Shown: positions 5,834-28,520 of the stretch, piece after piece
Layout: each line of letters starts with the position of its first letter
How positions within the stretch are numbered: the stretch's first letter is position 1
Assembly: GCA_031367905.1 (NCBI GenBank)
Contig: JANLQQ010000154.1
Location: 5,344 to 69,343 of the forward strand
Length of the DNA: 64,000 nt
Reading direction: 5' to 3'
Source of the DNA: Novosphingobium sp.
GTDB taxonomy: Bacteria > Pseudomonadota > Alphaproteobacteria > Sphingomonadales > Sphingomonadaceae
Program-made: the position numbers and the translations under genes
Notes under the pieces: generated by a model
What the model saw: the letters and a program-made list of their open reading frames with translations, nothing else
Databases searched by the model: none
What the model was told of the DNA's origin: nothing

Positions 5834-5840
5834 GGATACA

Positions 5841-7540: not shown

Positions 7541-7611
7541 TGGTTTTCAGCAAGCTCTGTTAACGATAGAAGGCCGGTTGCGGATGATGGCCGGGACTGC
7601 AGGGGGATTTC

Positions 7612-8489: not shown

Positions 8490-8569
8490 TCCGCCTCCCA
8501 TAATTTGGCGATGAGACCCTGCTATCATGGCTGCACGCCGGTGCAAAGCCTCCAGCGGTGGTCAACTAG

Positions 8570-9913
8570 ATGAGCCGCAGACGCATTGCCTTGGGCTGGA
8601 GTGCAACAATCGCGGATAAAACCGTGGTGGCGATTACCCAGCTGCTCTCGGTTCCGCTGCTTTCGCTTCACTGGGGGGTCGAGCTTTATGGCCTTTGGTC
8701 GATGCTGTTTGCAGTACCCAGCCTGCTGGCGCTGGGTGACTTCGGGTTCGCCTCGGCTGCCACAGCGCAAGTAACGATGGAAGTCGCCCGCGGGAACATG
8801 GCCGGCGCACGCGCCGCCTATCATGGCTCGCTGCGGATCGTGGTTTTCTTTACGGCAGCGTTGTTCGTTTTTGCCGGGCTCGCCTGTTTTCTTCTGCCCG
8901 ATTCCATTTGGCCGAACCAAGCAGGTTTTTCGCCGGACGATGCGCGAGTGACCGCCTTTGCGTTTTGCTGCTACGCCTTGCTGGTCGTGCTGGGTGCAAT
9001 GGCGTTGGTGGTATTCCGCAGTACTGGTGCAATGGCTTTGGGAACGGTCATCAACTCGTTTACACTGGCGGCTGAGACCACGTTGATTGCGCTGATTGTG
9101 TTCAATGGCGGCGGCTTGGCAGCGGCGGCTTTGGGCATGTTAGGCGCGCGCACCGTTGGCGTTCTGGCGATGGGTACGATCGCATGGAGCCGCAGTCCGC
9201 AGTTGCGTCCCGGTCTTGGCAAACCGGATCAATCGGTCATCAGGGCGCTGGTGCCCGCAGCAATGGCTGGGATGGCAATCACGCTCGGCAATGCATTGCT
9301 GGTCCAGGGCTCGGTGTTGGCGCTGGGACTTGCCGCCGGTGCAGCGGCAGTGCCAGCTTTCACCGCCGCGCGGACTTTGGCGCGATTGGCCTTGCAGGGC
9401 GCACAGACGTTGGCTTTGGTGCTGATGCCCGAATTTGCATCCGCAATTGCGCGGGGTGAGACCGAACGGGCCAACACGCTGGTTGGGGCGGTCGCGCTGG
9501 TAGCGTTGGCATTGTCGCTACCGTTTGCGCTTGGGTTGGCCATTTGGGGGCCGGAGTTGATCACGCTTTGGTCAGGCGGGGCACTGGATGCGGGGCGCGG
9601 ACTGATGATCGCGATGGGGCTCTCCGCATTGGCAGGCGCGCTGTGGGCACCCCTTTCGAGCTTGCTGCTTGCAATCAATCGGCAGGGCAGCTTTTCCTAC
9701 GTTTACATTCTGGCAGCAGCAATTGCCTGCCTTGGCATTTTCGGTTTCGCGGTGCGCTTTGGCAATGTTTCGGCAGGGGTTGCCTTCGCTCTGCTCGACC
9801 TGACTATGCTGGCTATCGTCGCAATTGCGATTGTGCGGATTTGTCCCAATGCGCTCCGGCCCTCACATTTGGCCGCCGCAGCGCAGCTGATCATCTCGCG
9901 GTTTCGGCGTTAA
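8570..9913 (+). CDS. Wzx-type polysaccharide flippase
   Basis: About 12 TM segments, WGVELYGLW and LGDFGF motifs of PST flippases; locus context. Confidence 0.8.
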   Translation: MSRRRIALGWSATIADKTVVAITQLLSVPLLSLHWGVELYGLWSMLFAVPSLLALGDFGFASAATAQVTMEVARGNMAGARAAYHGSLRIVVFFTAALFVFAGLACFLLPDSIWPNQAGFSPDDARVTAFAFCCYALLVVLGAMALVVFRSTGAMALGTVINSFTLAAETTLIALIVFNGGGLAAAALGMLGARTVGVLAMGTIAWSRSPQLRPGLGKPDQSVIRALVPAAMAGMAITLGNALLVQGSVLALGLAAGAAAVPAFTAARTLARLALQGAQTLALVLMPEFASAIARGETERANTLVGAVALVALALSLPFALGLAIWGPELITLWSGGALDAGRGLMIAMGLSALAGALWAPLSSLLLAINRQGSFSYVYILAAAIACLGIFGFAVRFGNVSAGVAFALLDLTMLAIVAIAIVRICPNALRPSHLAAAAQLIISRFRR

Positions 9914-11114
9914 GAACTGCCCGAGCGTGGTCCGCGATGGCCAAGCGGAAGTCTGCCCATTGCCATTTTGCGACCTGGGCAGCGATAACAGCGGGGTCGA
10001 GGCGGCCTTGCTCCTTATGCCTAACGAGGGCTCGCATGGCCTCGGCCAGTTCATCGATTTTCCCCGGCGTGACCAGTGTCAACGCCGCTGAATCGAGCGG
10101 AAGGTCTGGCAGACCGGTGTTAGGCGTGCCGATGACATGACATCCGGCTGCCAGTGCTTCCAGATAAACCAGGCCGAAACCTTCGATCAGTGACGGCATT
10201 ACGAAAACGTCATGCGCCACATAAAGCCGTTCCAGATCGCCGCGTTCCTGCCTGGCCAGCAAGCGGACGCCAGTCTGTTTGGCCATGGCAGCCAACGCCG
10301 GGTCGATTGCGTAGCAGACCAGCGTGAGCTCTGCGCCGGTTGCAGCGATCTTCGGCCAAGCCCGAAGCAAATGGTGCAAGCCTTTCCGCTGGATGCCCTG
10401 GCCAACAAACAGAAAGCGGCACGTTCCAGGTGGCCGCGGTCTTGATTGCGCCGCCGACGAAGGCGGCGCCCCATAGGGAATTACTGTGATCTTGGCAGGA
10501 TCGCAGCCAGCATGTTCGAGTGAACGCCGCGTCATCGTACTGGCGCAGACAACCGCATCAGCCAGGTGCCAGCCGTGCCGACGATCAATCCGCTCGGCCA
10601 GTAGCTCGCGGGTAAACGATTGCGCGCATTCGGGATAGGCGGCCGCGTCATCGCGGAGAATTTCCAGCGATAGCGCCGCATCGGGATGAAATTCAAAGTC
10701 AATCACCGGGCGGCCGGGTTGGCGCTCGACAGATTCGGGAAGATAATACGAATAACAGTAGAGCGCAGAGCCGCTCTGACGGGCACGTTTTGCTGCCGCC
10801 TTCGCGAGAATGCGTCCGTTTAAAGGCCACATCCAGTCGGGCGGATTCCTCCAAAGTGAAAGTGCTGCCTGGAGCAGGAAGGATCGCCAGACTGACTTTG
10901 ACTTAGCAGCGGGCAACCCCCGCATTGCCCGCCTCCGCAAGGGCCCCGGCCACAACGGTTTCGGTGATTCGCCAAGGTAGAAATCTGTCACGAAGCATTC
11001 GAGTAAACCCGCTTCGGCCAATGCCAGCGGGACCTGGTAATCGTCGCGGCGGCGATTGAAGACACAGACGAAGCGTGAGGGTTTTGGAACATCTGTAGGC
11101 GGACTTTTGATCAT
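9891..11114 (-). CDS. GT4 glycosyltransferase
   Basis: FLFVGQGIQRKG, FVMPSLIEGFGLVYLEALAAG (EX7E); start at MIKS (11114) preferred. Confidence 0.9.
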   Translation of the reverse strand: MIKSPPTDVPKPSRFVCVFNRRRDDYQVPLALAEAGLLECFVTDFYLGESPKPLWPGPLRRRAMRGLPAAKSKSVWRSFLLQAALSLWRNPPDWMWPLNGRILAKAAAKRARQSGSALYCYSYYLPESVERQPGRPVIDFEFHPDAALSLEILRDDAAAYPECAQSFTRELLAERIDRRHGWHLADAVVCASTMTRRSLEHAGCDPAKITVIPYGAPPSSAAQSRPRPPGTCRFLFVGQGIQRKGLHHLLRAWPKIAATGAELTLVCYAIDPALAAMAKQTGVRLLARQERGDLERLYVAHDVFVMPSLIEGFGLVYLEALAAGCHVIGTPNTGLPDLPLDSAALTLVTPGKIDELAEAMRALVRHKEQGRLDPAVIAAQVAKWQWADFRLAIADHARAVLNAETAR

Positions 11115-11216
11115 TCGGACAACCTTAACCGCGAGCCACGGCCACGACCACAGAAAACATTTTCCTACACGAGCCAATATGGTTATTTATCTTGTTCACT
11201 CTAACCGGAGGAACAT

Positions 11217-11645
11217 ATGCCCTCGACTCCCATCCTTAATCCGGCTGGCTACGTGCCGACCGTCGCGATCGGCTTTGCTGATATTACCAATTCACTCGCG
11301 GCAGTCGCCGCCGCCAATCCGCTGCCGATCGTGCAACAGCCGATCAACGCCTCTGCAGCACTTGCCGGTTCGACTGCCGCAACCGGCATTCTTGGACCAT
11401 TCGTGCCGGTGCTCGACCGCCCAGTAATGCTGCTACTTTCAGGCACCTGGACGGGTAGTGTGCGAGTTCTTCGCTCAACCGACGCTGGCACTACAAAACT
11501 GCCTCTGACGCTGGGCGGGATCGGCTGGGCTCAGTTCACCGGCAATTGCTGCGAGCCGGTGTGGGACGAATCAAGCGTCAATGCCCTGCTCTACCTCGAT
11601 GTAACCTACGCAAGTGGCACGATTGTCTACCGGATGGAGCAATAG
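11217..11645 (+). CDS. Small beta-rich hypothetical protein, phage-structural-like
   Basis: GGAGG RBS; LSGTWTGSVRVLRSTDAG strand pattern; no signal peptide or TM segment. Confidence 0.75.
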   Translation: MPSTPILNPAGYVPTVAIGFADITNSLAAVAAANPLPIVQQPINASAALAGSTAATGILGPFVPVLDRPVMLLLSGTWTGSVRVLRSTDAGTTKLPLTLGGIGWAQFTGNCCEPVWDESSVNALLYLDVTYASGTIVYRMEQ

Positions 11646-11647
11646 AC

Positions 11648-12934
11648 ATGGCAGCAGACATGATCGCACGCGGAATTGGCCTGGCCGAAGTCGCCCGCCA
11701 GAAGCGCCATCGGATTCTCAATACGCTGCGCACTTCGATCGAGCGGACCGGCTTCCGGCTGCCTCAACTTGACACTGCCTTGCCGACCATCGGCCTTGCG
11801 ACTGCCGCGACAGCGATCGCTACTGGAACCAGCTGGCAGGTTTCGGTCAGTGGCACTCCGGCCCTTCATGCTGCCAAATACACCTTCCTTGGCGGCACTT
11901 GGGCAAACAACAGCGCAGTATTTCCCGACACTGATGCCTACCGCCCGTTCACTTACCATGCCGGCAACGGCACCGACCCCACGACCAACTTCGTGCAGGG
12001 CGTCGGCCGGGTGCGTTTTTCCACTGCGGCACCAAAGCTCGAACTATGGGTCAAGGAAGGCGCGACCGGCGGTGGTCACGGCTTTCGGATGCAGGTTGAT
12101 GGCAAGCTTTCCAAGGCCGGATTGATCGGCCTCGGTAGCTCCAGCTTCCGCTATATTCCTGTGACTTGGGGTGATGGCACGGCAACATTTCGCAAGAACC
12201 GAAATTATGAGCTTGAATTTGGTCCGGTCGGCCAGTTCTGCGGAATCCGCACCGAACCGATCTATTCGCCTGAACCCTGGCCGCAGGCCGATGGTCTGCG
12301 CGTTGTCGTTCATGGCGACAGCCTGTTGCAGACAATTGTCGACACCGGCAGCCTCGATACTCCGACCTGGGGCGCGATGGGTGCGGTGATCGGCAACCTG
12401 ATCGGACAGGCAGACACCTGGGTTTCTGGCGTCGGCGGAACCGGCTGGTTCAACAGCGCCGTCAACACCAAAAGTACCTTCAACCAGCGAGTCACGCTCG
12501 ACGTGGTTGCACCTACCCCGGATGTGGTGATCGAGATGGGCGGCGGCAACGACTTTGCACTCGCCACCCAGAGCCAGCTTCAGGCTGCAGTTGAAAGCTG
12601 GTTGGCAACCGTAGTCGGCGCAAATCCGAATATCATTATCTTCATGATCGGTCCGGTGACCTGCGCAGCCTGGTCGGCGGCCAACAACTGGGCCCGCGAT
12701 GCCAAAAAGGCAGCGGCGGCCAAATACCCCCGAAACGTTGCCTTCATTGATAGCCCTGTCGAGGGCTGGACGTTTGGCACGGGCAAACAGGGCACTGTCA
12801 ATACCTCGGGCAATACGGACTGGGTTCTGGGCAGCGATGCCGCCCACCCGACGATTGAGGGTCATGTTCATCTGGCCGGACGGATCGCAAAAGCAGTGGC
12901 CAAGGCCATCCCCGGCCTAATCGCCGCACAATGA
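11648..12934 (+). CDS. SGNH/GDSL esterase with N-terminal beta-rich domain
   Basis: Blocks GDS (VVHGDSLL), GVGGTG, GGGND, DAAHP; ATG 2 nt after upstream stop; no signal peptide. Confidence 0.85.
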   Translation: MAADMIARGIGLAEVARQKRHRILNTLRTSIERTGFRLPQLDTALPTIGLATAATAIATGTSWQVSVSGTPALHAAKYTFLGGTWANNSAVFPDTDAYRPFTYHAGNGTDPTTNFVQGVGRVRFSTAAPKLELWVKEGATGGGHGFRMQVDGKLSKAGLIGLGSSSFRYIPVTWGDGTATFRKNRNYELEFGPVGQFCGIRTEPIYSPEPWPQADGLRVVVHGDSLLQTIVDTGSLDTPTWGAMGAVIGNLIGQADTWVSGVGGTGWFNSAVNTKSTFNQRVTLDVVAPTPDVVIEMGGGNDFALATQSQLQAAVESWLATVVGANPNIIIFMIGPVTCAAWSAANNWARDAKKAAAAKYPRNVAFIDSPVEGWTFGTGKQGTVNTSGNTDWVLGSDAAHPTIEGHVHLAGRIAKAVAKAIPGLIAAQ

Positions 12935-13014
12935 TCCATGCTTCGGAGGGGCGCGGCGCATTTGGCGGCACCCCTTCAGCGACCTTTCCACAGCAGTAAC
13001 CAGCAGGAGGCTTG

Positions 13015-15108
13015 ATGGCCGATTTCCTTTTTTCACAATTTGCAGTGCAGCTTATCAAGATCGGAACTGACATTGTCACCACAACCGGTCACAATGAGAT
13101 CGGCAAAGGTGGGGCAAGCTATGTCGCCGATGCGCTGGCGAACGCCGCATTTCAGGCGGCGCATCCTCGCTTCGTCGGCAAGAGCTCAAATTCCCGTTAC
13201 TTCCGCGCTTTGCCGTTAAACGGGGTGCTGACGGTTGAGATTGGCGGCGCAATTGGCGATGATACCGCCAACGATCAGCCCGCGATCCAGGCGACCGTCG
13301 CCTATGCTGAAGCAATCGGATGCCGTTCCATTGTCTTCACCAAACCAGCATATCGCCTGTTCTGTCCGATCCGCACCAGCGATCCCGATGGAACTATCGG
13401 CCAGCACGCGTATGATGGGCGGCCGTTGGTAATTTCTTCGGTGATGACACTCTCGTCCTCCAGCGCCGGCGGAACCACGCTCAATTTCCGCAATAGCGCT
13501 GGCAATCCGCGTGAAACCGGTTGGCAAGTGGTTTTTTCTCCCTCGGTTGCGCAGAATCAGCTCTGGCGCGGCGGCGGCTTGTTTCTGCGCTGCCCATCCA
13601 GCCTACCAGTAGCTCCAGCCGAGCGTCCGGGCATCTCGCTAATCGACATCACGCTCAACGGCGGAATCCCGCGCGGCAGCTATTTCGAGTTCCCGGCGCG
13701 CCTGTCCGATGGCGATGGCTGGGATGTGACCGACAAGGGCATCGAAGTTGAACCAGATCGCTTCTCAGGCGATATTCGTCTGATCCGTTCCGCAGTGAAG
13801 GGCTTCCGCGGCGAACTGATCTTCCAGGCCGGGGAGAATAACGGCGAGCTTTATACGCGCTCGGCAGTCCTTGCCGAAACCAACGGTGACATGTTCCAGT
13901 CATGCGGAACCAATGTCGATATCGACGGACTGTTCGTTACGCGGGGCTACGCTACGTTCGAAGGCTGGGCGGGCCGACGTGGCCGGATCGTCAACGCCGT
14001 GTTCGAGGATTGCATCAGCACCGGCGGAATGCAGGGCGGGCGGCTCAACACCGTATCAGCCAACCGCAATGCACCGCTGCGCTTCTCCGACGGCCTGGCC
14101 CCATGGCTGGACATAGACGCAGAGTTTCGCAACTGCGGCAATGTGAAGCTGGGCAGCTGGACCCGCGGCCGGCTGAAACTGACTGATTCGTCCTTGCTGA
14201 TCGATGCGACTGATCTCTATTCTGAGGGTCTCCATGACATCGACCTCGAAGTACTTTCCCAGGTTGATCAACTCAGCGACATCATGGCAGTTGCACTGAC
14301 CGGCGGGGCGACGGCGGGCTCAAAGACTCTGACCGACGTTCGCCTCCGCCTGACTTGCTCGCGTAGCGAGGAAGCGCGCCGCAATGACCGCATGCATACC
14401 CAGCCGGTCTCGTATTCCGGCTCGATTGGCCCCAACGTCCTGATCGAACAGTCAAGCGGCGAATCCAAGCGATACAGTGCGCCGACTGCGGCGGTAAGCG
14501 ACTTCCACCCTTGCTTCCGCGGCAACAGCTGGACGCGGATCGTCAACGACTGGTCGGGTACCTATCAGGACATCGCCGCCGCGCCGCTGCTTTCGGTTGC
14601 CGGGGATACCATGGCTATTTTCGCCAATGGTGCGGGCAATTTCGCCTTCACCCTGCCAACCGCCGGGATCAACGACGGGCATCAACTGACACTGGTGAAC
14701 GGCAGCAGCAGTGCGTGTTGCACGCTTGCCGCCAGCGGTGCCGGGGCGAAGCTCCCGGCGCGGCGGGTAATCGCTCCGGGCTCCATGATACGTCTGCGCT
14801 TTGCCGGGCTTGATGTGGTGTGGCAGGAGGAAATAGCACCGCCAGCCCTGGTCGCAAGCGCCGCGCTTGCCGCGCAGCCTATGCTGGCGGCAGGCGCAGT
14901 TTCGGCGGAAATCTCGGTACCACTATCTGGGGCCATCGAGGGAATGGCGGCAACTGCGACACCGCAAAACGACCTCGGCAGCGACCTTGAGGTGTGCCAA
15001 CTGCGCAGCCGAAATGGCGCTGTTACATGGCGTTTGCGGAACCTTGGCAGTGGATCGGCAATTCCGCCAGCCGCCACTTGGACGGTCAACGCCTATCATC
15101 TGAACTGA
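13015..15108 (+). CDS. Tailspike/depolymerase-like right-handed beta-helix protein
   Basis: TTGHNEIGKGGASY N-terminal unit; GAIGDDTANDQPAIQA (pectate_lyase_3-type cap); G/D/N-rich coils; beta-rich C-terminus; GGAGG RBS. Confidence 0.7.
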   Translation: MADFLFSQFAVQLIKIGTDIVTTTGHNEIGKGGASYVADALANAAFQAAHPRFVGKSSNSRYFRALPLNGVLTVEIGGAIGDDTANDQPAIQATVAYAEAIGCRSIVFTKPAYRLFCPIRTSDPDGTIGQHAYDGRPLVISSVMTLSSSSAGGTTLNFRNSAGNPRETGWQVVFSPSVAQNQLWRGGGLFLRCPSSLPVAPAERPGISLIDITLNGGIPRGSYFEFPARLSDGDGWDVTDKGIEVEPDRFSGDIRLIRSAVKGFRGELIFQAGENNGELYTRSAVLAETNGDMFQSCGTNVDIDGLFVTRGYATFEGWAGRRGRIVNAVFEDCISTGGMQGGRLNTVSANRNAPLRFSDGLAPWLDIDAEFRNCGNVKLGSWTRGRLKLTDSSLLIDATDLYSEGLHDIDLEVLSQVDQLSDIMAVALTGGATAGSKTLTDVRLRLTCSRSEEARRNDRMHTQPVSYSGSIGPNVLIEQSSGESKRYSAPTAAVSDFHPCFRGNSWTRIVNDWSGTYQDIAAAPLLSVAGDTMAIFANGAGNFAFTLPTAGINDGHQLTLVNGSSSACCTLAASGAGAKLPARRVIAPGSMIRLRFAGLDVVWQEEIAPPALVASAALAAQPMLAAGAVSAEISVPLSGAIEGMAATATPQNDLGSDLEVCQLRSRNGAVTWRLRNLGSGSAIPPAATWTVNAYHLN

Positions 15109-15162: not shown

Positions 15163-16365
15163 ATGGTTGCTGGGGCTGAAACTTTGGATGAGACTGGTCC
15201 CGTTCGGCACGCCGCCCGCGTCGTCTGGGTTTCGCCGAGCTATGGCTACTCCGGTAAGTTAATGTATTTTGGGGATATTTTCCGCCAGTTTACGATACAA
15301 TTTCCGCATACCACAATCCCGGTCGCGCCAGAAGATATGGATAGCGAAGGAATTGGTGTCAATCTGCTGCCAATTCTGCGCCTGCGCTATTTAAGTTGGC
15401 AACGTAAAGTCGGCGAGGCCGACTATTTGACCCGTATGGCGCTGCCCTCGCTGGCAACCATGCTCGCCCTGTACCGGCTTATGCCCGACGTCATTATCAC
15501 GATCGAGTTCACTCCGCTGGCCCTGGCCGCAATGCTGCTGTCGAGCCTGTCCGGGAAAATCGCGCGGGTTCAACTGATCGAATCTGATCCGGCAGCGCGC
15601 GGCGGATCCCGGATTTGGCTGGTACTGGCAATCAAGCGCTGGGCTTGCCGGCGCGCGGACGTGATAATGGCCAACAACGAAGCTGGCCGCCGTTTCGCGA
15701 TTGAGGATCTTCGGGCCGATCCCGCAAAGGTTGTGGCCGCTCCCTATCTTACTTCACATCCGCCCGGACCGCAGCCTGATCGTTCCGTCGCCCCTGGCGG
15801 CATTGTACGGCTGCTGTTTGTCAATTCGCTTACCGAGCGAAAAGGTCTGAGCCACTTGCTTGCGTCACTGGCGCTGCTGGGCGAGGAACAGCGCAAGAAG
15901 CTTAGCCTGACTGTCGTTGGCGATGGGCCGCAGCGTGCGGCGCTTGAAGCGCAAACAATCGAGTTGGGCCTGGCGGCGCAAGTCGAATTTGTGGGCGCCA
16001 AACCTTATGATTGCGTCGGCGCATTCTACGCCAGAGCCGATGTGCTGGTTGCGCCCAGCCTTGCCGATTATCGCTCACTGGCCAGTTTTGAAGGGCTTGC
16101 CTACGGGCTTGCCCTGATCGTTTCGAGCTTCGATGGCGCCGCTGCCGAAACTGTGATTGAAGGTGTCACTGGATACAGTGTGGCGCCGCACGATCATGCC
16201 AGGCTGGCAATGTGCATCGCCAGCCTGATCGAAAATCATGCGCAGCTGGCCGCGATGCGCATGGCGGCACTGGCTTTGTTCGAGGAGCATTTCTCTGTAG
16301 ACCGCGTTGTTACCAATCTGGAAACGAGCGTCTTGCTGGCGTTAAAAAAGCGCGGGGAAGGCTAA
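15163..16365 (+). CDS. GT4 glycosyltransferase
   Basis: LLFVNSLTERKG, VVGDGPQR, APSLADYRSLASFEGLAYG (variant of the EX7E motif). Confidence 0.85.
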   Translation: MVAGAETLDETGPVRHAARVVWVSPSYGYSGKLMYFGDIFRQFTIQFPHTTIPVAPEDMDSEGIGVNLLPILRLRYLSWQRKVGEADYLTRMALPSLATMLALYRLMPDVIITIEFTPLALAAMLLSSLSGKIARVQLIESDPAARGGSRIWLVLAIKRWACRRADVIMANNEAGRRFAIEDLRADPAKVVAAPYLTSHPPGPQPDRSVAPGGIVRLLFVNSLTERKGLSHLLASLALLGEEQRKKLSLTVVGDGPQRAALEAQTIELGLAAQVEFVGAKPYDCVGAFYARADVLVAPSLADYRSLASFEGLAYGLALIVSSFDGAAAETVIEGVTGYSVAPHDHARLAMCIASLIENHAQLAAMRMAALALFEEHFSVDRVVTNLETSVLLALKKRGEG

Positions 16366-16367
16366 AT

Positions 16368-17498
16368 GTGGCGCGGGTCATAATTATTCAGCGGCTCGTG
16401 CCGCACTATCGAATTCCAGTGTTTGCGCAGCTCCACCGCGAGCTTGGCTGGGAAGTTGTGGCAAGTGACCGCCCGGTTGCAAACGGTCTGAAGCTTGCCC
16501 GGCCGGAAGATCACGAATGGCTCCACCCGGTGCCGATGACGATGAGCAGCAACAACTTTTATCGCGCTTATGTGCCGATGGGTCGGATCATGCGTGAGTT
16601 TAAGCCCGATGCGCTGGTGGCCGAGTTTTCGCTGCAGCTCAGCTCAAGTTGGCAACTCGCCCTGGGCCCGAAGAAAGTCCCATTTGCGTTTTGGTCGCAA
16701 GGCTGGAATCTTGAACGCGGCTTCGATAGTTGGCGTGACCGGCTGGTTCAAAAGACCCGGCTGATGCTGCAGCAGCGCGCCGATGCACAGCTTTGCTACT
16801 CAGATCAAGGCGCTGCCTATCTGCGCAGCCAGTTGCCAGTCGGAATGCCGATTTGCGTCGCGCAAAACACCATCGAAATTGATCAGCAAGATGGCGCTCC
16901 GAGCGATCGCAAGCCGGGATATCAGCTCCTGTATGTTGGCCGGCTCAATGCCGACAAGCGCGTAGACGTCCTGATCGAGGCATTTGTGAGGTTGAAGCAG
17001 CGAGGACTGGTTGAACGGTTGGTGATCGTGGGCGACGGCCCGGAACGCGAAGTCGTGCGCCGACAGGCCGGCGCAATCGATGGCATCACCCTGACCGGAG
17101 CGATCTATGACGAGGCCAAGTTGGCCGGGTTCTTTGCGGCAAGCGACTTGTTCGTGGTGCCCGGCAGTGCCGGATTAAGCGTAAACCACGCACTGGCCTA
17201 CGCGTTGCCGGTACTCTTGTTCGATGATGCTGGCGCCATGCGGCACCACCCCGAACACAGCACCATTATCGAGGGCGTCAGCGGCTATCGTATCCCTGGG
17301 ACCGGGGCTGAGGCATTGGCGCAAGGGATTGCGACAGCCTTTTCGGGTCTGAACTCGCCCAAAGTGCAGCTTTCTGACAGCATTCGCGCCCTCGTTGCCG
17401 ATACCATCTCACTTGAGCGCATGATCATGGGCTTTCGAGAACTTGACAAAATCTTGACCCGGCAAGCTGCGCGAATGCAGCAACGGTCCTATGGCTAA
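16368..17498 (+). CDS. GT4 glycosyltransferase
   Basis: VPHYRIPVF, LLYVGRLNADKR, IVGDGPE, PGSAGLSVNHALAYALP; GTG start at 16368. Confidence 0.85.
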   Translation: MARVIIIQRLVPHYRIPVFAQLHRELGWEVVASDRPVANGLKLARPEDHEWLHPVPMTMSSNNFYRAYVPMGRIMREFKPDALVAEFSLQLSSSWQLALGPKKVPFAFWSQGWNLERGFDSWRDRLVQKTRLMLQQRADAQLCYSDQGAAYLRSQLPVGMPICVAQNTIEIDQQDGAPSDRKPGYQLLYVGRLNADKRVDVLIEAFVRLKQRGLVERLVIVGDGPEREVVRRQAGAIDGITLTGAIYDEAKLAGFFAASDLFVVPGSAGLSVNHALAYALPVLLFDDAGAMRHHPEHSTIIEGVSGYRIPGTGAEALAQGIATAFSGLNSPKVQLSDSIRALVADTISLERMIMGFRELDKILTRQAARMQQRSYG

Positions 17499-17605
17499 GC
17501 TTTATCTGCAATGGTTCAGGACCTTTGCAATTGCGCCGCGATTGGGGCAGGCTGATCCCGTTCAAATAGCACCAATTGACGTCCGGGTTTTCGAAAGCTG
17601 CGCCC

Positions 17606-19033
17606 ATGTATGAATTTCTGTTGCTGGCCAGCACCGGTGTCTGGGCCATCACCGCACTGGTTTACTCCCAGCGGTCTTGCGCGTCGATGTTCCATCCGCT
17701 CACCTATTACCTTGCCTTTCACTTCCTGATCTTTGTGCTGCGGCCTCCGCTAGTTTATTTCCGCGAATACAATGTGATATACCGCGTTTACGAGTTCCAG
17801 CCATCGATGGAGGACAAGTCTACAGTCCTTATCGCAGCCAATCTGGGACTGATCGCTTTTGCGGTCATGGTCCTGCGCAAGGGCAGTGCAGCATTCCAGT
17901 TCAAACGCACGCAATTCGATGAAGCGCAGCGGACGCTATTGTGGAAGCCCTTCATGATTTCGGCATTGGTCCTGTTTCCCATCGCCGCCCTCTCGCTGGT
18001 AAGCGACATTTCCAGCAAGGCTCTGGATTCAACGACCATGGTGCGCGACGCCGCCACCGGCATTGCGGTCAACACCTCCGGAAATGGTTACTTCGTCGAT
18101 GCCCAGATGATGCTGGCTCCGCTCGCTTTGATGTTCGCCTGGCTGCTGCGATTCCGCTGGTGGTCGCTGATGCCGTTGCTGGTGTTCATCGTCTTGCGCG
18201 GGATGACCGGCGGACGCGGGGTATTCGTGCTAAGTGCAGTCGCCTTGGCCCTGCTGTTCCTTTATGAGCAGCGGCAAAAATGGCTTGTTCCCAGAGTTCT
18301 GCTTGGCTTGGCTGCGCTGGTCGCCATGTTCAATATTGTGGGCCAAGATCGCGGCGCGGCGATCCGGGCGCTGGTCATGGACGATTATAGTGTGCAGGGC
18401 CTGAATGGCGCCGATGAACTCCGCTTCCTTGAAGGAATGGACGCGGGGAACCTCGAGTATTTCGAGTTCCTGGTTTATGCCATCCCTCAGCGGAGCGGAA
18501 CCTACGGCTATTTCCTCAATAATTTGCAGATTCTGACTGAGCCGATCCCGCGCGGATTGTGGCCAAACAAGCCGATCGGTCCACCGATCCAGATGTATAA
18601 GCTGTTCGATTATGGCTACCCGATCGGCATGACCAATTCTCTGCCCGGCGAAGGCTGGGCCCAGCTCGGCTACCTTGGCGTGGCGCTATGGTGTGGGTTG
18701 TTCGGGTATCTTTGGGGTGTGGCCTTCAATAGTTATGTCAAAGGGCCGCAGACGAATTTTCAGACTGTCACCTATATGTTTGCCTTGCCAATCTCGATCC
18801 TGTTCTTCCGCGATGGCACCATTCTGACTTTTCTGAAAGCCGGCTTTTACCTGTTCCTGCCGCTGCTGATTATGCGGGGCATGGCCGGGCTGCTGGCGAT
18901 CCCTTCGGCCGAAGCGTTGGCCGGCGCAGCCTTGCGCAAACGGCAGCGCCAACAAGCCATGCAATCGGGCAAGATCCTGCCCGGAGCGGGGGCCCGGGTG
19001 CTGGGGATGCGCAAGGTCGTGCCCCGGCGATGA
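17606..19033 (+). CDS. Wzy-type polysaccharide polymerase
   Basis: About 11 TM segments; GGRG, IPRGLWPNKP periplasmic loop, GEGWAQLG, FFRDG. Confidence 0.75.
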   Translation: MYEFLLLASTGVWAITALVYSQRSCASMFHPLTYYLAFHFLIFVLRPPLVYFREYNVIYRVYEFQPSMEDKSTVLIAANLGLIAFAVMVLRKGSAAFQFKRTQFDEAQRTLLWKPFMISALVLFPIAALSLVSDISSKALDSTTMVRDAATGIAVNTSGNGYFVDAQMMLAPLALMFAWLLRFRWWSLMPLLVFIVLRGMTGGRGVFVLSAVALALLFLYEQRQKWLVPRVLLGLAALVAMFNIVGQDRGAAIRALVMDDYSVQGLNGADELRFLEGMDAGNLEYFEFLVYAIPQRSGTYGYFLNNLQILTEPIPRGLWPNKPIGPPIQMYKLFDYGYPIGMTNSLPGEGWAQLGYLGVALWCGLFGYLWGVAFNSYVKGPQTNFQTVTYMFALPISILFFRDGTILTFLKAGFYLFLPLLIMRGMAGLLAIPSAEALAGAALRKRQRQQAMQSGKILPGAGARVLGMRKVVPRR

Positions 19034-20214
19034 GCGCCAACTCATACAATTTCAGCGCCAGCCACTCCATCACCGGTCAGCGCATCGGATTGCTGACCGC
19101 CTCGGCCTCGCGGCTAGGCGGCGGAGTGTCCGAGGCGGTCATCGCCCAAGCGCAGCTATTGGCAGAGCTGGGTGCAGAGCCGCATGTCTTTGCGTTGGAA
19201 GACCATTTCAGCGAAGCCGATCGCCCCCGGTTCGGGGACGTGAAAGTCGAACTGCACCGGGTCACCGGACCGTCACAGTTCGGCTTCGCCCCAAGCCTGG
19301 TACAAGGGCTTATGGCGGCAAAGCTAGACTGCCTGCACCTGCATGGCATCTGGATGTATCCATCGGCAGCGGCCGCGCGCTGGGCCCGGCAATCTGGCGG
19401 CGCCTATCTCATCAGCCCGCATGGCATGCTCGATCCCTGGATCACATCGCGTGGGCGCTGGAAAAAGGCGCTGGCGCGGATCGGCTATGAGCGGCGCAGT
19501 TGGCAACGGGCGACCCGCTGGCATGCCCTGACCGAGGCTGAAGCAGCCGATATCGTGGCGGAAACCGGGCGCAGCGCAGTCATCATCCCGAACTGGGCAC
19601 CGCCGCCATCCCTGCCAACCCAGACAGAGAATGGCAGTTTCATATATCTTGGACGGATCCATCCCAAGAAGAACCTGGCCGCGCTGCTTGACGCATGGGG
19701 TGAACTGGACCGGAACGGTGCACTTGGCCCGGCCCGGTTGACGATTGCCGGCTGGGGGGAGGAGCGCGATGTTGCTGCGCTGAAATCGGCACTGGTTAGC
19801 GCACCACCTTCAGTATCGTTCATCGGGCCAGTCCTTGGTGAGCACAAGCAGGCCCTGCTGGACCGGGCGCACCACTTGATTTTGCCGTCGCTCAGTGAAG
19901 GATTGCCAATGGTGATTCTCGAAGCATGGGCCAGTGGCACCCCGACGATAATGACCACGCACTGCCACCTGGATGATGGCATCGCCGCCGGGGCCGCTTT
20001 GCGCTGCGGGACCGATCAGCATTCAATCGCCGCCGCCATTCTGCAGGCGCTTAGCCTGGACGAGGCGCAGTGGGGGGCGATGGCGAAGGCTGCACGGCAG
20101 CTGGCCGCCGGCCCGTTTGCCCGCGCCACCATTGCCGGGCAATGGGCGGCTGCCTATGCTCAGGCTATCGAGCAGGTTCGGCAAGAGACCCCGGACCGCA
20201 AGGCGAGGATGTGA
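19030..20214 (+). CDS. GT4 glycosyltransferase
   Basis: LHLHGIW, ISPHGMLDPW, YLGRIHPKKN, PSLSEGLPMVILEAW. Confidence 0.92.
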   Translation: MSANSYNFSASHSITGQRIGLLTASASRLGGGVSEAVIAQAQLLAELGAEPHVFALEDHFSEADRPRFGDVKVELHRVTGPSQFGFAPSLVQGLMAAKLDCLHLHGIWMYPSAAAARWARQSGGAYLISPHGMLDPWITSRGRWKKALARIGYERRSWQRATRWHALTEAEAADIVAETGRSAVIIPNWAPPPSLPTQTENGSFIYLGRIHPKKNLAALLDAWGELDRNGALGPARLTIAGWGEERDVAALKSALVSAPPSVSFIGPVLGEHKQALLDRAHHLILPSLSEGLPMVILEAWASGTPTIMTTHCHLDDGIAAGAALRCGTDQHSIAAAILQALSLDEAQWGAMAKAARQLAAGPFARATIAGQWAAAYAQAIEQVRQETPDRKARM

Positions 20215-20215
20215 A

Positions 20216-20788
20216 ATGAGTACGCCGCTGAATGCACGCAGCGCGCGCCCACTTGAGGGCGGAGCGAGCTTTTCACTGGGCAACCGCGTGCTGCGGCTGG
20301 TCTGGGGCATGGCCTGGCTGCTGTTCGCCCGCTTCACCCCGCCGCCCCTGTACGGTTGGCGCCGCCTTATTCTGCGCAGTTTTGGAGCGACGATCGCGCC
20401 CGGGGCGCGGGTTCACGCCAGCGCGGTCATCTGGCTGCCCGCCAATCTGGAGCTTGGCCCCAACTGTCTGATCGGCCCGCGGGTCAGGCTGTATAATCAA
20501 GGCCGGATCACCGTAGGCGCGCGCAGTGTGATCTCGCAAGGGGCGCATTTATGCGCGAGCAGCCATGATGTGTCAGATCCGGATTTCCAGCTTGTGCTGC
20601 ATCCGATCACAATCGGGTCGGGGTGCTGGGTTGCCGCGGAGGCCTTTGTCGGCCCAGGGGTAACCATGGCTGACGGATCAGTTTTGGGCGCGCGCGGCGC
20701 CTTGTTCGGAAGCGCCGAGGCCAACGGGATTTATCAAGGCAATCCGGCGGTCTGGATCAAACTGCGCCAATTACGGGGCGTAGGCTAA
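20216..20788 (+). CDS. WcaF-like hexapeptide-repeat O-acetyltransferase
   Basis: WRRLILRSFGA, left-handed beta-helix repeats, SQGAHLCASSHD, GNPA. Confidence 0.88.
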   Translation: MSTPLNARSARPLEGGASFSLGNRVLRLVWGMAWLLFARFTPPPLYGWRRLILRSFGATIAPGARVHASAVIWLPANLELGPNCLIGPRVRLYNQGRITVGARSVISQGAHLCASSHDVSDPDFQLVLHPITIGSGCWVAAEAFVGPGVTMADGSVLGARGALFGSAEANGIYQGNPAVWIKLRQLRGVG

Positions 20789-22003: not shown

Positions 22004-24253
22004 TCAGGCTGCGGCCTTGGTGCTGGCCTTGTCCTTGCCGGAATACTGATAATAGTCGTAGCCGTAATATTCGGAATAGCGGTTGCTGCCCTTCGACACG
22101 TCGAACATTGTCAATACCGCGCCCAGAATTGTTGGCTGCATCGCGCGGAGGCGGCGCAGCGAAGCCTTGAGCGAACCGCGCCGGCCACGGTCAGCTTCGA
22201 CCACAAAGATCACCCCTTCGACCAGCGCCGACATCAACGGGGCGTCAGCCAGGCCGAGGACCGGGGGACAATCGAGGATCACGATGTCATAAGTTGCTGC
22301 CAGCTCAGCAAGGACTGCTTCCATCCGGGCGGAACTCAGCAGTTCCGTCGGGCTCGGCGGGATCGGGCCGGAAGTGATCAATGACAGGTTCTCAGTGCCG
22401 GTTTCACGCACCGCACTCAGCACTGGATCTGCGGAAGTCAGCAAGTTTGACATCCCGCGACCATTTTCACCGTCAAGCTTGTGGTGCAGCGAAGGGCGGC
22501 GCAAATCGACGTCGAGCAAGACCACCCGCCGCCCCATCCGGGCCAGGCTGTTGGCGATTGCCCAACTGGTGGTGGTCTTGCCTTCCGCAGGCTGAGAGCT
22601 GGTAATCAACAGCGTACGCGGCAGGCCGTGGCTGGTGGCATAGATCAGCGCGCCGCGCAGCGAGTTATAGGATTCGCTGATCGGCGACTTGGGATCGAGC
22701 AGTTCTTGCTCAGGCGAATCACCGCGGGTCTTGGGCACCACGCCGAGCAGCGGCAACATCAGCTTGCCTTCGACATCCTCGGGAACATGCACAGTGTCGT
22801 CAAACTGGCTCTTGAGGAAGACAACCAGCATCGCCAGCACAGTTGCAGCGAACAGCGCAAATACGACATTCTTCATCAGGTTGGGCGAGGATGGCGAGGT
22901 TGGTGTTTCGGCCTCGTCAATGATCGAAATGTTGCTGGCGCTGAGTCCAGCAGCGGCGTTCAGCTCTTTGAAGCGCTGGAGCAACCCATCATACAGCGCG
23001 CGATTGGTATCAGCTTCACGGGCCAGCAGATTATACTGCACCAGACGATCCTGCTCGGCCAAGGTTTCCGACTTGAGCCGATCGACCTGATTGCCGAGGG
23101 CCTGTTCGGTTGATGCGGCGGCCAGATAATCGGCCCGGATTGAATCGCGGACACTGCGCGCGGTCCGCTGGATTTGGGCGTCAATCGCGCCAAGTTGCGC
23201 CCGCAGCTGCAGGACCGTGGGATGATCTTCAAGGTGCCGGGCCCGCTCTTCCTCAAGCGCCGCATCGATCTTGCCGCGCTCGGTCGTCAGCTGCTGGACG
23301 CTGGCATTGGACAGCACTTCGCGCGCGCTCAGCAGCGGCACTCCGGCGATCGCCTGCCAGCGGCCTTCGGCAGCGATGCGGGCAGAACGCGCATCATTGG
23401 CGGCCGAGTTGGTCTGAAGCAGGCTGGCAGTGGTCACCGAACTACCGCCGCCAGTTTGAGAAGCCCCGTTCGGCCCCGGCGCAGGAATCGCATCCCGGGT
23501 GCGGATCAAGCCGTTCTCCCGGGCATAGCTGTTCACCGCGCGCTCCGAAGTTTCCAGGCGGGCCTTGGCTTCGCCCAACTGGTTGGAGACGAAATCGCGG
23601 GCATAGGCCGAGCTGTCATAGCGGCGTTGCAAATTGGCCTGGATAAACTCGCCGGCAAAGCCATTGGCGATCCGCGCCGACATTTCCGGATCGGTGCTTT
23701 CAAAGGTAATTGCGGTCACGCGCGAATTGCGCGGCAGCTTTGCCGCAAGATTACTGCGGAGCATGGCGATAGTCAGCTCGCGCGCCATCCGGGGATCGGC
23801 CCCCGGCACCGGGGGTTCGACTTGCACAGCCTTATAAAAGCGGGCGCTTCCGGTCAGGCCCATCTTTTGCATGACGCGCACTGCCAGACCGCGGCTGTTC
23901 AGAATATCGATCTGGGTCTGGAGGAAGCGATCGACATCATAGGATGCGTTGACGCTCGCCGAACTATCTTCCTGGTCTTTCAGAATGCGTTCGGACTGAT
24001 CGTTGATCTGAACGCTGGCCCGGGCTGTATAACGCGGGGTCTGGAGCATCGTCGCCACCACCGCCAGTGCCAGCGCCGCACCCAGCATCAAGGCAATCAG
24101 CACGATGTTGGCCCGCACCAGCGAAACATAATAGCGGATGTCAAAACCCGGGCCCTTGCCCTCGCCATAAATGTCTTCGTTCGACAAATGATCAAGAGTA
24201 ACGGCCCGCTCGGCGAGGGACGCCACATCTTGAGGGTGGGCCAGCTGATTCAC
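22004..24253 (-). CDS. wzc: Wzc polysaccharide co-polymerase/tyrosine autokinase
   Basis: Two TMs around a coiled coil; Walker A SSQPAEGKTT, DVDLRRP, ILDCPP; C-terminal Tyr cluster YSEYYGYDYYQY. Confidence 0.93.
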   Translation of the reverse strand: MNQLAHPQDVASLAERAVTLDHLSNEDIYGEGKGPGFDIRYYVSLVRANIVLIALMLGAALALAVVATMLQTPRYTARASVQINDQSERILKDQEDSSASVNASYDVDRFLQTQIDILNSRGLAVRVMQKMGLTGSARFYKAVQVEPPVPGADPRMARELTIAMLRSNLAAKLPRNSRVTAITFESTDPEMSARIANGFAGEFIQANLQRRYDSSAYARDFVSNQLGEAKARLETSERAVNSYARENGLIRTRDAIPAPGPNGASQTGGGSSVTTASLLQTNSAANDARSARIAAEGRWQAIAGVPLLSAREVLSNASVQQLTTERGKIDAALEEERARHLEDHPTVLQLRAQLGAIDAQIQRTARSVRDSIRADYLAAASTEQALGNQVDRLKSETLAEQDRLVQYNLLAREADTNRALYDGLLQRFKELNAAAGLSASNISIIDEAETPTSPSSPNLMKNVVFALFAATVLAMLVVFLKSQFDDTVHVPEDVEGKLMLPLLGVVPKTRGDSPEQELLDPKSPISESYNSLRGALIYATSHGLPRTLLITSSQPAEGKTTTSWAIANSLARMGRRVVLLDVDLRRPSLHHKLDGENGRGMSNLLTSADPVLSAVRETGTENLSLITSGPIPPSPTELLSSARMEAVLAELAATYDIVILDCPPVLGLADAPLMSALVEGVIFVVEADRGRRGSLKASLRRLRAMQPTILGAVLTMFDVSKGSNRYSEYYGYDYYQYSGKDKASTKAAA

Positions 24254-24271
24254 GACTGTATCCTGACGGGA

Positions 24272-24967
24272 CTAGAAGTAACTGAAAACATAAAGCAGCG
24301 GCGCCGCAACCAGGAAGTCGCGGAAGGCGCCCTTGACGGCATCGAAGCCCACGACGACGACATCGCCGCCGATTAACTGAGGATCGGCGGCCCTGCCGTT
24401 GCGGATCGCACCAAGATCGAAGCGCGCGCCCATCCGGCGCCCGTTGACCGTGCGAAACACCACAACTTCATCCAGCTTGGCTGTCTTGGTGGGACTTTGC
24501 GCCTGAGCGAGTGCTGAGAGCAGAGTGGATTGCGTGCCGACCTCATAGACCCCGGGATGACCGACCTGACCCTCAACCGCGACCGTCTGGGCGCGCGATA
24601 ATATGAGATTGACCACCACACTGGGGTTGCGGATGTAGCGGGTGCCAAGCCGCATGGTTATTTCTGCCGCCAGATCCGCCGTGGTCTTATCGGCCGCGAT
24701 CATGTCGCCGACCAGCGGAAGCTGAACCCGGCCGACCTCATCGACCTTGAGTTTGTCAACGCTGAGATCTGGTTCCTGAAAGACCCGCACCTGCAATTCA
24801 TCACCGGGACGGATGCGATAAGCGGTCGGCAGCGCAGCATAATCGGCCTGCGGAACAACGGCATAGGCCGCATCACCGGTTGGCAGATTATTTTTACCCC
24901 CGCTGGCGCAACCAGCCAGTAGCGCAATCGCCGCAAGCGCGCAGATCTGGCGGGAGAAGCAATTCAT
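24272..24967 (-). CDS. wza: Wza/OPX polysaccharide export lipoprotein
   Basis: Lipobox LLAGC; YRIRPGDELQVRVF, LPLVG, VEGQVGHPGVY. Confidence 0.9.
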   Translation of the reverse strand: MNCFSRQICALAAIALLAGCASGGKNNLPTGDAAYAVVPQADYAALPTAYRIRPGDELQVRVFQEPDLSVDKLKVDEVGRVQLPLVGDMIAADKTTADLAAEITMRLGTRYIRNPSVVVNLILSRAQTVAVEGQVGHPGVYEVGTQSTLLSALAQAQSPTKTAKLDEVVVFRTVNGRRMGARFDLGAIRNGRAADPQLIGGDVVVVGFDAVKGAFRDFLVAAPLLYVFSYF

Positions 24968-24970
24968 TGC

Positions 24971-26401
24971 CTATTGAACCTTTGATCCGCTGTTACCCGA
25001 TTGCCGATGCGGCATCGGCATAAGCATTGCGGCAGAGATCGCTGCGATGGCCGCCAACGACATCGAGCGCAAGGGGTAATCGACCATCGAATGAAGTCCA
25101 AGAACGGCCAGCACCACACCACCAAACCAGACTTGCACGCGCGCGCCCGGTATACCACTGCACCAGTGCTTGTGGGCGAGGCCAATCAGGATCGCGGCGC
25201 AAATCGCAAGCACGATAGTCCCCGGCAGACCTGCTTCAATGGCGAATTCCAGAAAATCATTGTGGGCCCGGTTTGGAACGGTTGGATCGACCACCTCAAG
25301 CCGCTCGCTGGCGAGGAACACCGGTACGAAATTGCCGAGTCCGGCCCCGAATGGCCAGTACTGACCGAGGCTGTAGAGCGAATCTTTCCACAATTCGGGG
25401 CGGAACTCACCAGCAAAATCATACCGCGCAAGTATGCCTGCGATCACCGAATTGCGCAGCAAGAGCGGAAGGACTGCGCCTGCGGTCACTATCCCCAGCA
25501 GCGCCAGACCTACTCTCCGCGATAGCGCGAGATGGGCTTGAAAGATCCCCAGCTGTGCAATTACGACCAGCGGAACCAGCATCATGCCGGCGCGCGAACC
25601 AGTCAGCACAATGCCAAGTGCCAACATCAGAAAGGGTGCAGCCATCACCAGCGGCCAGCGGAATTGCTCGGCGCGGGTCCGGCGCAGGCCGATCCGTTCC
25701 AGCATCGCCGCGCTCAGAGCCAGATAGCCGACCAACAGCAGGTCTGCGCTGCTGTTGCGATTGGCCTGGAAACCGCTCAGGAACGGTTGGTCCGGAACGT
25801 AGAAGCGCAGCCAGTTGCCAGTCCCGCCAGACATTTGCGCAGCGCCGACCACCAGGCTGAGCAGCGCGATCCCCGCGATCAACCCCATGATCATGGCCCG
25901 TCCCGCCCGATCGAGCGAAGCAACCATTACCATGGCAATCAGCGGGACGATAAGCGCAAGCCCCGCTGCGATCGTCCGCGCCGGCGAGATAGTCAGCGGG
26001 CGCCAGCTATCCTGTTGGCCGATCAGAGCAAGTGCGGCACGCTCACCCGCGCGGCCCGGCAGACCGTGCCACAGGATTGGCGGCAATGGTATCAACTGGA
26101 TGAGCGGGATTGCAAAAAGGATGACCGCAAGCAGGATGGCCGGGCCGGACAACTGGGCTGGGGGCCGCTTAAAATAAGCTCTAGCCCCAAGCGTGGCTGC
26201 CCAGGCAGCAAGTAGCGCTGCAGTGATGAGCTGGAGGATAAGCTCGGGCAGCGGGTTGGGCGAACCGCCGCCGCCCAGCATGATTACCACGCCCAGGAAC
26301 GACACCGCCACCACGCCGGCAAGGGAAGACGGATCTTTCCCTCGCCCAACCGCTGAGGACAACCGCAATAAATCAGGGAGTTGAACTATTGCCACAGGCA
26401 T
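24971..26401 (-). CDS. O-antigen ligase (WaaL/Wzy_C)-family membrane protein
   Basis: Multi-TM; GFQANRN, LTGSRAG, GAGLGNF, RAHNDFLE, HSMVDYPLR. Confidence 0.88.
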   Translation of the reverse strand: MPVAIVQLPDLLRLSSAVGRGKDPSSLAGVVAVSFLGVVIMLGGGGSPNPLPELILQLITAALLAAWAATLGARAYFKRPPAQLSGPAILLAVILFAIPLIQLIPLPPILWHGLPGRAGERAALALIGQQDSWRPLTISPARTIAAGLALIVPLIAMVMVASLDRAGRAMIMGLIAGIALLSLVVGAAQMSGGTGNWLRFYVPDQPFLSGFQANRNSSADLLLVGYLALSAAMLERIGLRRTRAEQFRWPLVMAAPFLMLALGIVLTGSRAGMMLVPLVVIAQLGIFQAHLALSRRVGLALLGIVTAGAVLPLLLRNSVIAGILARYDFAGEFRPELWKDSLYSLGQYWPFGAGLGNFVPVFLASERLEVVDPTVPNRAHNDFLEFAIEAGLPGTIVLAICAAILIGLAHKHWCSGIPGARVQVWFGGVVLAVLGLHSMVDYPLRSMSLAAIAAISAAMLMPMPHRQSGNSGSKVQ

Positions 26402-26454
26402 AGCTGGCCAGGCAAGAGGAACGCAAGTGCGACGTTTTGCCGCCGCAAGGCTGG

Positions 26455-26916
26455 TTAACCCTTGCTATCTTTGCCCAACGCGATGGCCAGCCCGGCAGCG
26501 CCGCCTGCGGCAACCAGAACTGTCAGCACGGTGCCAGCAGCCCCGCCGCTACCACCGGCAGCCTGACCGCCAGAGTTACCCGGCGCAGGCGCACCATCGC
26601 AGGTGCGATCACGCAGCAGCGCACCAACGATTGCTTCGGCCGAGCCGTTGGCGTTGCCCGAAGGACCAGTAGAAATTGTGCAGACGCAGCCGCCATTGTT
26701 CATCACCTGACGCGTGATGTCAGCAGTTCCGGGCGCGCCATTGCGCACCACATCAACGCGGCATTGACCGCCTGCGCCGGACCCACCGCCCAGACCATCG
26801 GCGGCCATTAGCACCTGCGAAGGGAGCGCGGCAAAAGACCGCGTTTCAGTCGCGGATGCGACGCCCGCACCCAACAGGCCAGCGGCGGCGATTGCTGCGA
26901 TAATTTGCGATGTCAC
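26455..26916 (-). CDS. Small secreted 4-Cys protein with Gly-rich linker and C-terminal TM
   Basis: Signal peptide ending ASA; Cys in GQC, CVC, RTC; C-terminus VLTVLVAAGGAAGLAIALGKDSKG. Confidence 0.7.
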   Translation of the reverse strand: MTSQIIAAIAAAGLLGAGVASATETRSFAALPSQVLMAADGLGGGSGAGGQCRVDVVRNGAPGTADITRQVMNNGGCVCTISTGPSGNANGSAEAIVGALLRDRTCDGAPAPGNSGGQAAGGSGGAAGTVLTVLVAAGGAAGLAIALGKDSKG

Positions 26917-27079
26917 TTGGCGATACCCTTGAAATATTTTTTTAGTTCAGTTGTAAATACCACAGGGAAGATACCCATGTCCAGTTAATACAGTGTGAAT
27001 CCACGGGGTTGTACCAAATTAACCATAACTGCGACAAAACTGCTGCACCCGGACTCGCCCTCTGGGGGCTGGATTAACG

Positions 27080-28426: not shown

Positions 28427-28520
28427 GCAAGTGCCCCGCGCGACGCCGAGAATTCGGACACCCGCTGTCTCTGCCTCGCCGGCCAGCGATGCGCAAGGCG
28501 TGGCGACGCCAAAATTGTGA

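Follow-up and report, generated by a model that had tools for sequence, protein, structure and literature searches.

A spike-like three-gene cassette in a Novosphingobium polysaccharide locus as a probable accessory module of a gene transfer agent

The stretch of Novosphingobium sp. DNA analysed here (the window; 64,000 nt, contig JANLQQ010000154.1, positions 5,344 to 69,343) contains three plus-strand open reading frames (ORFs) of 142, 428 and 697 amino acids, located where a first-pass annotation made from the sequence alone had placed them. Gene 1 (11217..11645) encodes a putative adaptor or base protein, composed of a portable N-terminal arm (residues 1-42) and a predicted jelly-roll (residues 41-142). 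Gene 2 (11648..12934) encodes an SGNH esterase with an N-terminal anchor peptide (residues 4-11, 11657..11680), and gene 3 (13015..15108) an anchor-less beta-helix protein resembling tailspikes. The ATG of gene 2 lies 2 nt past the stop of gene 1, gene 3 begins 80 nt past gene 2, and each gene is present in one copy in the source genome (assembly 81% complete). A predicted promoter, assigned from motif and spacing, precedes gene 1 on the same strand (11161..11189). The host locus is a Wzx/Wzy-type polysaccharide locus. The cassette had been described as sitting between glycosyltransferases, and it is indeed flanked by them, but the upstream one (GT4 by Pfam, 9891..11177, minus strand) is divergent, so that the cassette begins at a divergent promoter and only the downstream capsule genes are co-oriented with it. 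None of the three proteins has a signal peptide or a transmembrane stretch according to a home-made hydrophobicity rule (not SignalP), and Pfam identified no capsid, portal, terminase or integrase family among 50 of the 182 ORFs listed in the window, both as first reported. The results presented below indicate that the cassette very probably belongs to the accessory and lysis regulon of a gene transfer agent (GTA), as a GTA accessory module.

The 142-amino-acid protein, hereafter the base, has 118 relatives in GTDB, sphingomonads in nearly all entries that name a family or genus, and the best 80 loci were analysed; the nearest (L001) encodes proteins 95-99% identical to those of the cassette. 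Its structural model is all-beta (pLDDT 88.7), in line with its earlier description as beta-rich, and from residue 41 adopts the C2-like jelly-roll of the XepA/YomS family. The best structural matches were the C-terminal domain of XepA (Z 10.9, root-mean-square deviation (rmsd) 2.6, 96 residues aligned) and YomS (Z 10.7, rmsd 2.9, 101 aligned), at 10% identity and with a Z score about 2 above that of the third match, a phage cement protein (Z 8.6). An Atlas feature match pointed to the same family (PF27453 XepA at 0.91, 170 shared features), and the best BFVD matches were uncharacterised phage proteins. Searches of Pfam, PHROG and NCBIfam returned no family for the base, nor did PHROG for 26 distant relatives; the protein had no match in GenBank phages, and its profile none among PDB sequences at E 10. 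The first-pass annotation had judged it, by eye, to be unlike Rcc01079, the spike base of the Rhodobacter capsulatus GTA (RcGTA). In agreement with this, hhalign of the family profile against gp29 of phage RcapNL, a verified Rcc01079 homologue (E 2.9e-30), gave a probability of 0.5%, and no homology was detected. Rcc01079 (6tb9) was also not among the fold-search matches listed for the model. A complex prediction combining four copies only of the base with partner residues 1-40 scored 0.01, a result that speaks neither for nor against binding. In every cassette pair computed, the ratio of non-synonymous to synonymous substitution rates (dN/dS) was 0.09-0.57; across ten related cassettes, three of which are close relatives forming a star, no difference was visible between GTA-positive and GTA-negative pairs. 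Residues 1-42 recur on another body of 450 aa, unrelated to that of the base (probability 95%). Such proteins of about 450 aa, with the base-type arm on another body and the same upstream motif, were seen in L144/L175 and L145/L176, the one in L175 lying in a capsule locus ahead of a large tail-fibre-like gene.

In 72 of the 80 loci the gene following the base starts with the short peptide MSxDxIARGLA. The pattern used to call this anchor, M-x-x-D-[ILF]-[IVA]-A-R-G in a gene starting -4 to +30 nt after the base gene, was written after the sequences had been seen; D4 and R8 are invariant in 66 aligned partners. The other eight loci comprise one at a contig end, three near variants, three with an ALALSALGLA-like start and one without a partner. 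The bodies behind the peptide fall into nine clusters, namely two SGNH classes (20 and 14), gene-3-like beta-helices (19), pectate-lyase-type tailspikes (10) and five small ones. The expectation that the small gene would be conserved while the downstream catalytic bodies are swapped was thus borne out, with a fixed N-terminal peptide carried by varied SGNH and tailspike bodies, and the 72 loci are laid out like a head-spike module, where a small base gene comes first and the fibre gene after it opens with a short conserved anchor. A tree of 63 base proteins requires 11 changes among the four body classes against a minimum of 3; when only the starred branches are considered, not more than one origin is forced per body class. 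The GDSL/SGNH domain of gene 2 (PF13472, residues 223-406, E 7.7e-9, above cut-off) contains all the SGNH blocks GDS, G, GxND and DxxH (GDS 223, 261, GGND 299 and DAAH 397), and the strict GxND pattern was found in none of 18 partners of class SGNH_A. Residues 56-421 also match PHROG 9703, annotated 'head decoration' (E 1.6e-8). Gene 2 is predicted to encode a capsule de-O-acetylase or a capsule-binding fibre. Phage Carin-1 is said to carry SGNH head spikes on a spike base.

The model of gene 3 (pLDDT 90.6) is a right-handed beta-helix with tailspike architecture. Its Foldseek matches listed to rank 23 were phage tailspikes only (best E 2.6e-8), with TM-scores of only 0.2-0.4 and identities of 10-13%, and tail-spike PHROGs match gene 3 and many of the anchored partners. 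A depolymerase or capsule-binding spike is predicted. An anchor-less gene-3 homologue follows 26 of 31 evaluable SGNH-anchored cassettes and 0 of 26 tailspike-anchored ones, which ties the third gene to the base module; in one carrier it is broken. The 80-nt spacer between genes 2 and 3 (12935-13014) contains a predicted stem-loop of -27.6 kcal/mol, a value obtained without shuffle control.

The region upstream of the base gene consists of TTTCCTAC (11161-11168, -35-like), AGCC-N5-GGTT (11172-11184) and a -10-like hexamer 17 nt past TTTCCT. TTCCTAC precedes the base gene in 76 of the 80 loci and only 4 of 924 other called genes of the same loci; it is usually followed by AACC-N5-GGTT, with AACC in most relatives and AGCC here. 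The source genome has 21 copies of the 8-mer TTTCCTAC. Six of them are upstream of the base gene, one holin, one endolysin and three genes resembling small terminases; the others are found before a DnaJ-like gene, before further genes or where no gene is evident. When the full pattern was searched with [AG]CC, three sites were left in this genome: the base gene, the holin and one small-terminase-like gene. The strict pattern gave 12 sites in 20 relatives (reversed control, 0), of which five belong to genes of the holin family, two each to base genes and to proteins with a similar N-terminal arm, and one each to an endolysin and an Rcc01079-family spike base (match to PDB 6tb9, E 7.6e-10), the last site being unassigned. 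TTCCTAC was also present upstream of 15 of 20 Rcc01079-like genes inspected and of three gafZ-like genes inspected, a fourth locus (G298) being devoid of it. By motif sequence, therefore, the cassette and GTA accessory genes have regulatory elements in common. Neither the LexA box (0 and 2 of 69) nor the CtrA box TTAA-N7-TTAA (0 of 69) accounts for the motif. A generic sigma-70 scan did not find the cassette promoter, and no terminator excess was seen. The TTTCCTAC copies at G000:C63:163, C186:71233, C32:24713, C177:2058 and C113:2053 mark a small regulon outside the GTA cluster, whose members are a holin, a lysozyme and three additional genes of small-terminase type (PHROG 4044). A second copy in the window, at 9693 within the flippase-like gene, is probably there by chance.

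The accessory regulon of GafY in Caulobacter crescentus includes about 18 unlinked promoters with a degenerate -35, and no consensus for GafY was obtained there; the main GTA cluster of this species has a TATCTTT -10 and a palindrome between -35 and -10 (PMC11150451). A TATCTT-like -10 is likewise present at several of our motif sites, and in sphingomonad GTA promoters TTGACA is followed by a palindrome. From the spacing, we infer that the cassette promoter resembles GafY targets in pairing a degenerate -35 and a -10 of TATCTT type, with TTCCTAC as a candidate activator site. AACC-N5-GG lies just upstream of the TTGACA -35 in 14 of 14 printed main-cluster promoters, and the strict palindrome is present in 7 of 15. 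The sphingomonad GTA main promoters (G000:C128:6325, L182-L199) have AACC-N5-GG and TTGACA in common, the latter followed immediately by an imperfect palindrome whose position resembles that of the Caulobacter GafZ-binding element.

GTA clusters are known in Sphingomonadales (PMC5721377), and the search proposed by the first-pass annotation found an RcGTA-like structural cluster in the source genome, split over two contig ends (C128 and C6). It comprises terminase, portal, protease, HK97 capsid, gp8 connector, tail tube, distal tail, hub, NlpC/P60, megatron-like and DUF2793 genes. In L084 the GTA distal-tail ORF (16053-18500) fuses a TIM-barrel 'non-contractile tail sheath' domain to DUF2460. 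Co-occurrence was examined in 300 genomes at least 95% complete, the family rates being taken from 228 genomes; four weak partial base matches were left out. A full-length base match was found in 31 genomes, 23 of which have a megatron match, a rate equal to that of the family (168/228). Rcc01079-like genes occur in 57 of the 228 family genomes, and most partners start with G-F/L-G repeats. The two base types occur together in 3 of the 31 genomes, where 7.75 were expected (p 0.04; kin not independent), and one Rcc01079-like gene was seen in a capsule locus. In L190, L191, L192, L194 and L195 an Rcc01079-like gene lies just after the capsid gene within the main GTA cluster. A comparison of 6 base-type with 7 Rcc01079-type genomes, of low power, gave no capsid-protein column separating them.

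Polysaccharide genes lie within 6 kb of the cassette in 73 of the 80 loci. Among 25 loci with a common flanking core gene (202 pairs), the likeness of capsule genes was 57% for pairs with the same cargo and 38% for pairs with different cargoes, at equal host-gene identity (90 vs 89%). The partial rho between cargo class and capsule genes was 0.73, a value reached by none of 2000 label shuffles, although the pairs are not independent. The predicted co-variation of cargo class with capsule genes, and not with the host core gene, was therefore observed.

The closest functional parallel is the RcGTA head spike, GhsA/GhsB (Rcc01079/Rcc01080). It consists of a small jelly-roll base and a fibre, encoded downstream, that is held through a short peptide at its N-terminus, residues 2-10 (PMC7296036); its genes lie away from the main GTA cluster and immediately precede capsule genes (PMC5026251), and capsule binding by the RcGTA spikes is known (PMC10218006). 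As described above, sphingomonad members of the Rcc01079 family have the upstream motif of the cassette. The present base differs from GhsA in length (142 vs 84 aa) as well as in the lack of detectable homology, its D-x-x-A-R-G-L-A anchor is probably helical and unlike the alternating G-L of the RcGTA fibre, and its cargoes, in contrast to GhsB, are predicted enzymes (SGNH, beta-helix), with a third, anchor-less spike in addition. From its sequence, the cassette appears to work like the RcGTA head spike while standing outside the Rcc01079 family by the tests run. In the turret of the archaeal virus HFTV1, a jelly-roll base (gp30, hexamer) carries on the capsid a trimeric polysaccharide-deacetylase-like head (PMC12494034), which is of NodB type and not SGNH as here; the base model matched a turret chain with Z 7.6 (rmsd 3.5, 94 aligned), and Z below 8 may reflect a common fold only. 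RcGTA TspA is likewise a GTA-regulated, unlinked, polysaccharide-degrading spike released with particles; it is baseplate-bound, reported only from Rhodobacterales and, in the accessible text of the preprint, without adaptor gene, anchor peptide or capsule locus (bioRxiv 10.64898/2026.07.19.739414). XepA and YomS, from the Bacillus prophages PBSX and SPbeta, are both pentamers; XepA depends for its cytotoxicity on a second domain, and no enzyme partner with an anchor is described in the available part of that account (PMC6834076), whereas members of the base family come with a conserved partner gene downstream and reside in capsule loci. We found no paper on sphingomonad GTA spikes, on the motif or on lysis-cassette spikes bearing signal peptides, most subscription journals being outside the search.

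Taken together, these results lead us to favour, with some reserve, a GTA head spike analogous to GhsA/GhsB. This preference stems from the true spike base of relatives, which has the same promoter, the same layout and, in one case, a capsule locus, and from the lower than expected overlap of the two base types. The receptor-binding module originally proposed gains from the GTA cluster, the conserved gene with swapped bodies, the capsule co-variation and the upstream motif; co-induction, binding of the peptide to the base, oligomeric state, position on the head, capsule activity and kin bias are parts of it that we infer. The cassette would be induced together with holin and endolysin through the common upstream motif. 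On the particle, and there most likely at the head vertices, the base would form an oligomer that would grip the N-terminal peptide of the SGNH esterase, on which the anchor-less tailspike would ride. Cell lysis would then free the particle with its spikes, which would explain the lack of signal peptides. Located within the capsule locus and moving with it, the cassette would provide spikes that fit the capsule made by that very locus, and would thereby favour gene transfer to cells sharing this capsule type.

A number of observations weigh against a head spike. The gafZ search returned no gafZ-like gene in the source genome at its 81% completeness, and TTCCTAC was present in 0 of 15 main-cluster GTA promoters examined. 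Absence of a GTA from carriers, which the first-pass annotation regarded as damaging, applies to 8 of the 31 base carriers and not to the other 23: these eight genomes, 99-100% complete, are without megatron (60/228 in the family), none has a DUF2460 gene and seven are without a PF05065 capsid. Seven of them retain open reading frames for both base and partner; a stop interrupts the base gene of one carrier. Since the megatron gene is also lacking in 11 of 57 carriers of Rcc01079-like genes (Fisher p 0.59), such carriers do not decide the matter, and the objection is softened, not removed. This points either to frequent and recent losses of the main GTA cluster or to a separate use of the accessory regulon. 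The holin and gafZ-like (DUF6456) genes are each kept in 24 of 27 megatron-negative genomes tested; in such genomes they usually lie 5-25 kb apart, near secD/secF. As for capsule co-variation, physical linkage explains it equally well, and it thus indicates co-inheritance, not biochemical matching. XepA, the closest solved fold, is a lysis-cassette protein reported to be exported and absent from mature particles (PMC6834076).

The phage relatives raise a similar difficulty. The base is carried by 19 IMG/VR loci (four near-identical), where it lies in lysis cassettes, as xepA does, beside endolysin genes of very different phage types, with capsids including the P2-like and GP7 types. An endolysin lies within about 3 kb in seven loci by Pfam/PHROG (L088-L093, L099) and in several more by eye. 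The partner, an anchored esterase, has a signal-peptide-like leader in L088-L091, L096 and L100, and so, by eye or rule, has the base. In L088-L091 and L096 the predicted cleavage site comes just ahead of the anchor. In L099 the leader is on the partner only, and in L085 on neither. The home-made leader rule flagged 0 of 72 bacterial partners. Leaders on the phage partner and usually on the base are hard to square with cytoplasmic capsid assembly. Against this, phage RcapNL has its Rcc01079 homologue and a G-L-G-L fibre directly after a peptidoglycan-binding gene, and a lysis-cassette position thus does not exclude a head spike. Further leader-bearing genes were seen after the endolysin in L092, L093 and L098.

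These leaders and lysis cassettes, together with the XepA-like fold, are what the main rival explanation builds on. Under the same regulon, the base would be the hub of a free or loosely attached complex, multimerising deacetylase and depolymerase with no need of a capsid, which would be released by holin/endolysin lysis and strip the cell's own capsule or biofilm matrix, aiding particle escape or dispersal. The retention of holin, gafZ-like genes and open cassettes in megatron-negative genomes, and the precedent of TspA, a detachable biofilm-degrading tailspike controlled by GafA (bioRxiv 10.64898/2026.07.19.739414), speak for such a complex. We nevertheless consider it unlikely, though deserving of serious weight, given that true Rcc01079-family bases match the cassette in promoter, in base-plus-anchored-fibre layout and in persistence without megatron, that the RcapNL homologue occupies the same kind of lysis position, and that gene 2 matches a PHROG annotated as head decoration.

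The other explanations are less compatible with these data. Docking of gene 3, or of the whole module, on the GTA baseplate through the short DUF2793 protein is improbable: the tail-spike PHROG matches point that way, and the DUF2793 ORF after megatron (L084:12135-12590) has 152 aa with the domain at 30-113, leaving little room for a receptor domain, but gene 3 keeps company only with the SGNH anchor holder and so belongs with the base module. Phage enzymes domesticated for the routine building, remodelling or shedding of capsule, unconnected with GTA or lysis, would fit the capsule-locus position, and a nearby WcaF-like acetyltransferase supplies a plausible substrate; the missing export signal (home-made rule) and a motif common to holin, endolysin, terminase-like and spike-base genes make this very improbable. 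We give hardly any credence to a non-functional prophage remnant, for which the stop in one base gene and the broken third gene of one carrier could be invoked, in view of the 118 GTDB relatives, the conserved promoter and the dN/dS values.

More speculatively, and with rather less than even conviction, we suggest that sphingomonads and phages have in common a XepA-fold ring that takes any protein starting with the eight-residue anchor. In the bacteria it would be kept in the capsule locus under the GTA/lysis promoter, lock (capsule) and key (spike) being swapped together, so that gene transfer would be restricted by capsule type. In phage versions, the signal peptides on both parts would have the complex built in the periplasm, and only lysis would bring it into contact with virions or capsule; in capsid-less genomes, the leftover regulon (gafZ-like gene, holin, hub and enzymes) could act as a programmed capsule-stripping lysis system. 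Should the head-spike reading be true, the cassette would represent a second, non-homologous solution to capsule recognition by GTAs. Kin restriction of GTA transfer becomes testable, cargo class being readable from sequence and following capsule genes, and GTA accessory genes could be traced among sphingomonads by means of the upstream motif. The data also suggest a possible function for the XepA/YomS fold as adaptor for an anchored enzyme, and the short anchor could serve protein display.

The polysaccharide genes around the cassette are those of Wzx/Wzy-dependent capsule or exopolysaccharide export. Upstream lies a flippase-like (Wzx) gene (8570..9913, plus strand; NF041503, E 2.7e-7, below cut-off). 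Downstream, in cassette orientation, Pfam and NCBIfam identified two GT4 genes, a Wzy-like polymerase, a further GT4 and the WcaF-like acetyltransferase (15163..20788, plus strand), followed on the minus strand by Wzc, Wza, an O-antigen-ligase-like gene and a priming glycosyltransferase (22004..28585). Ahead of the flippase, positions 4973-8573 contain FkbM-type and class-24 methyltransferase genes and three further ORFs without family; a 338-aa ORF family from this segment is enriched next to this type of cargo, in 10 of 14 loci against 2 others.

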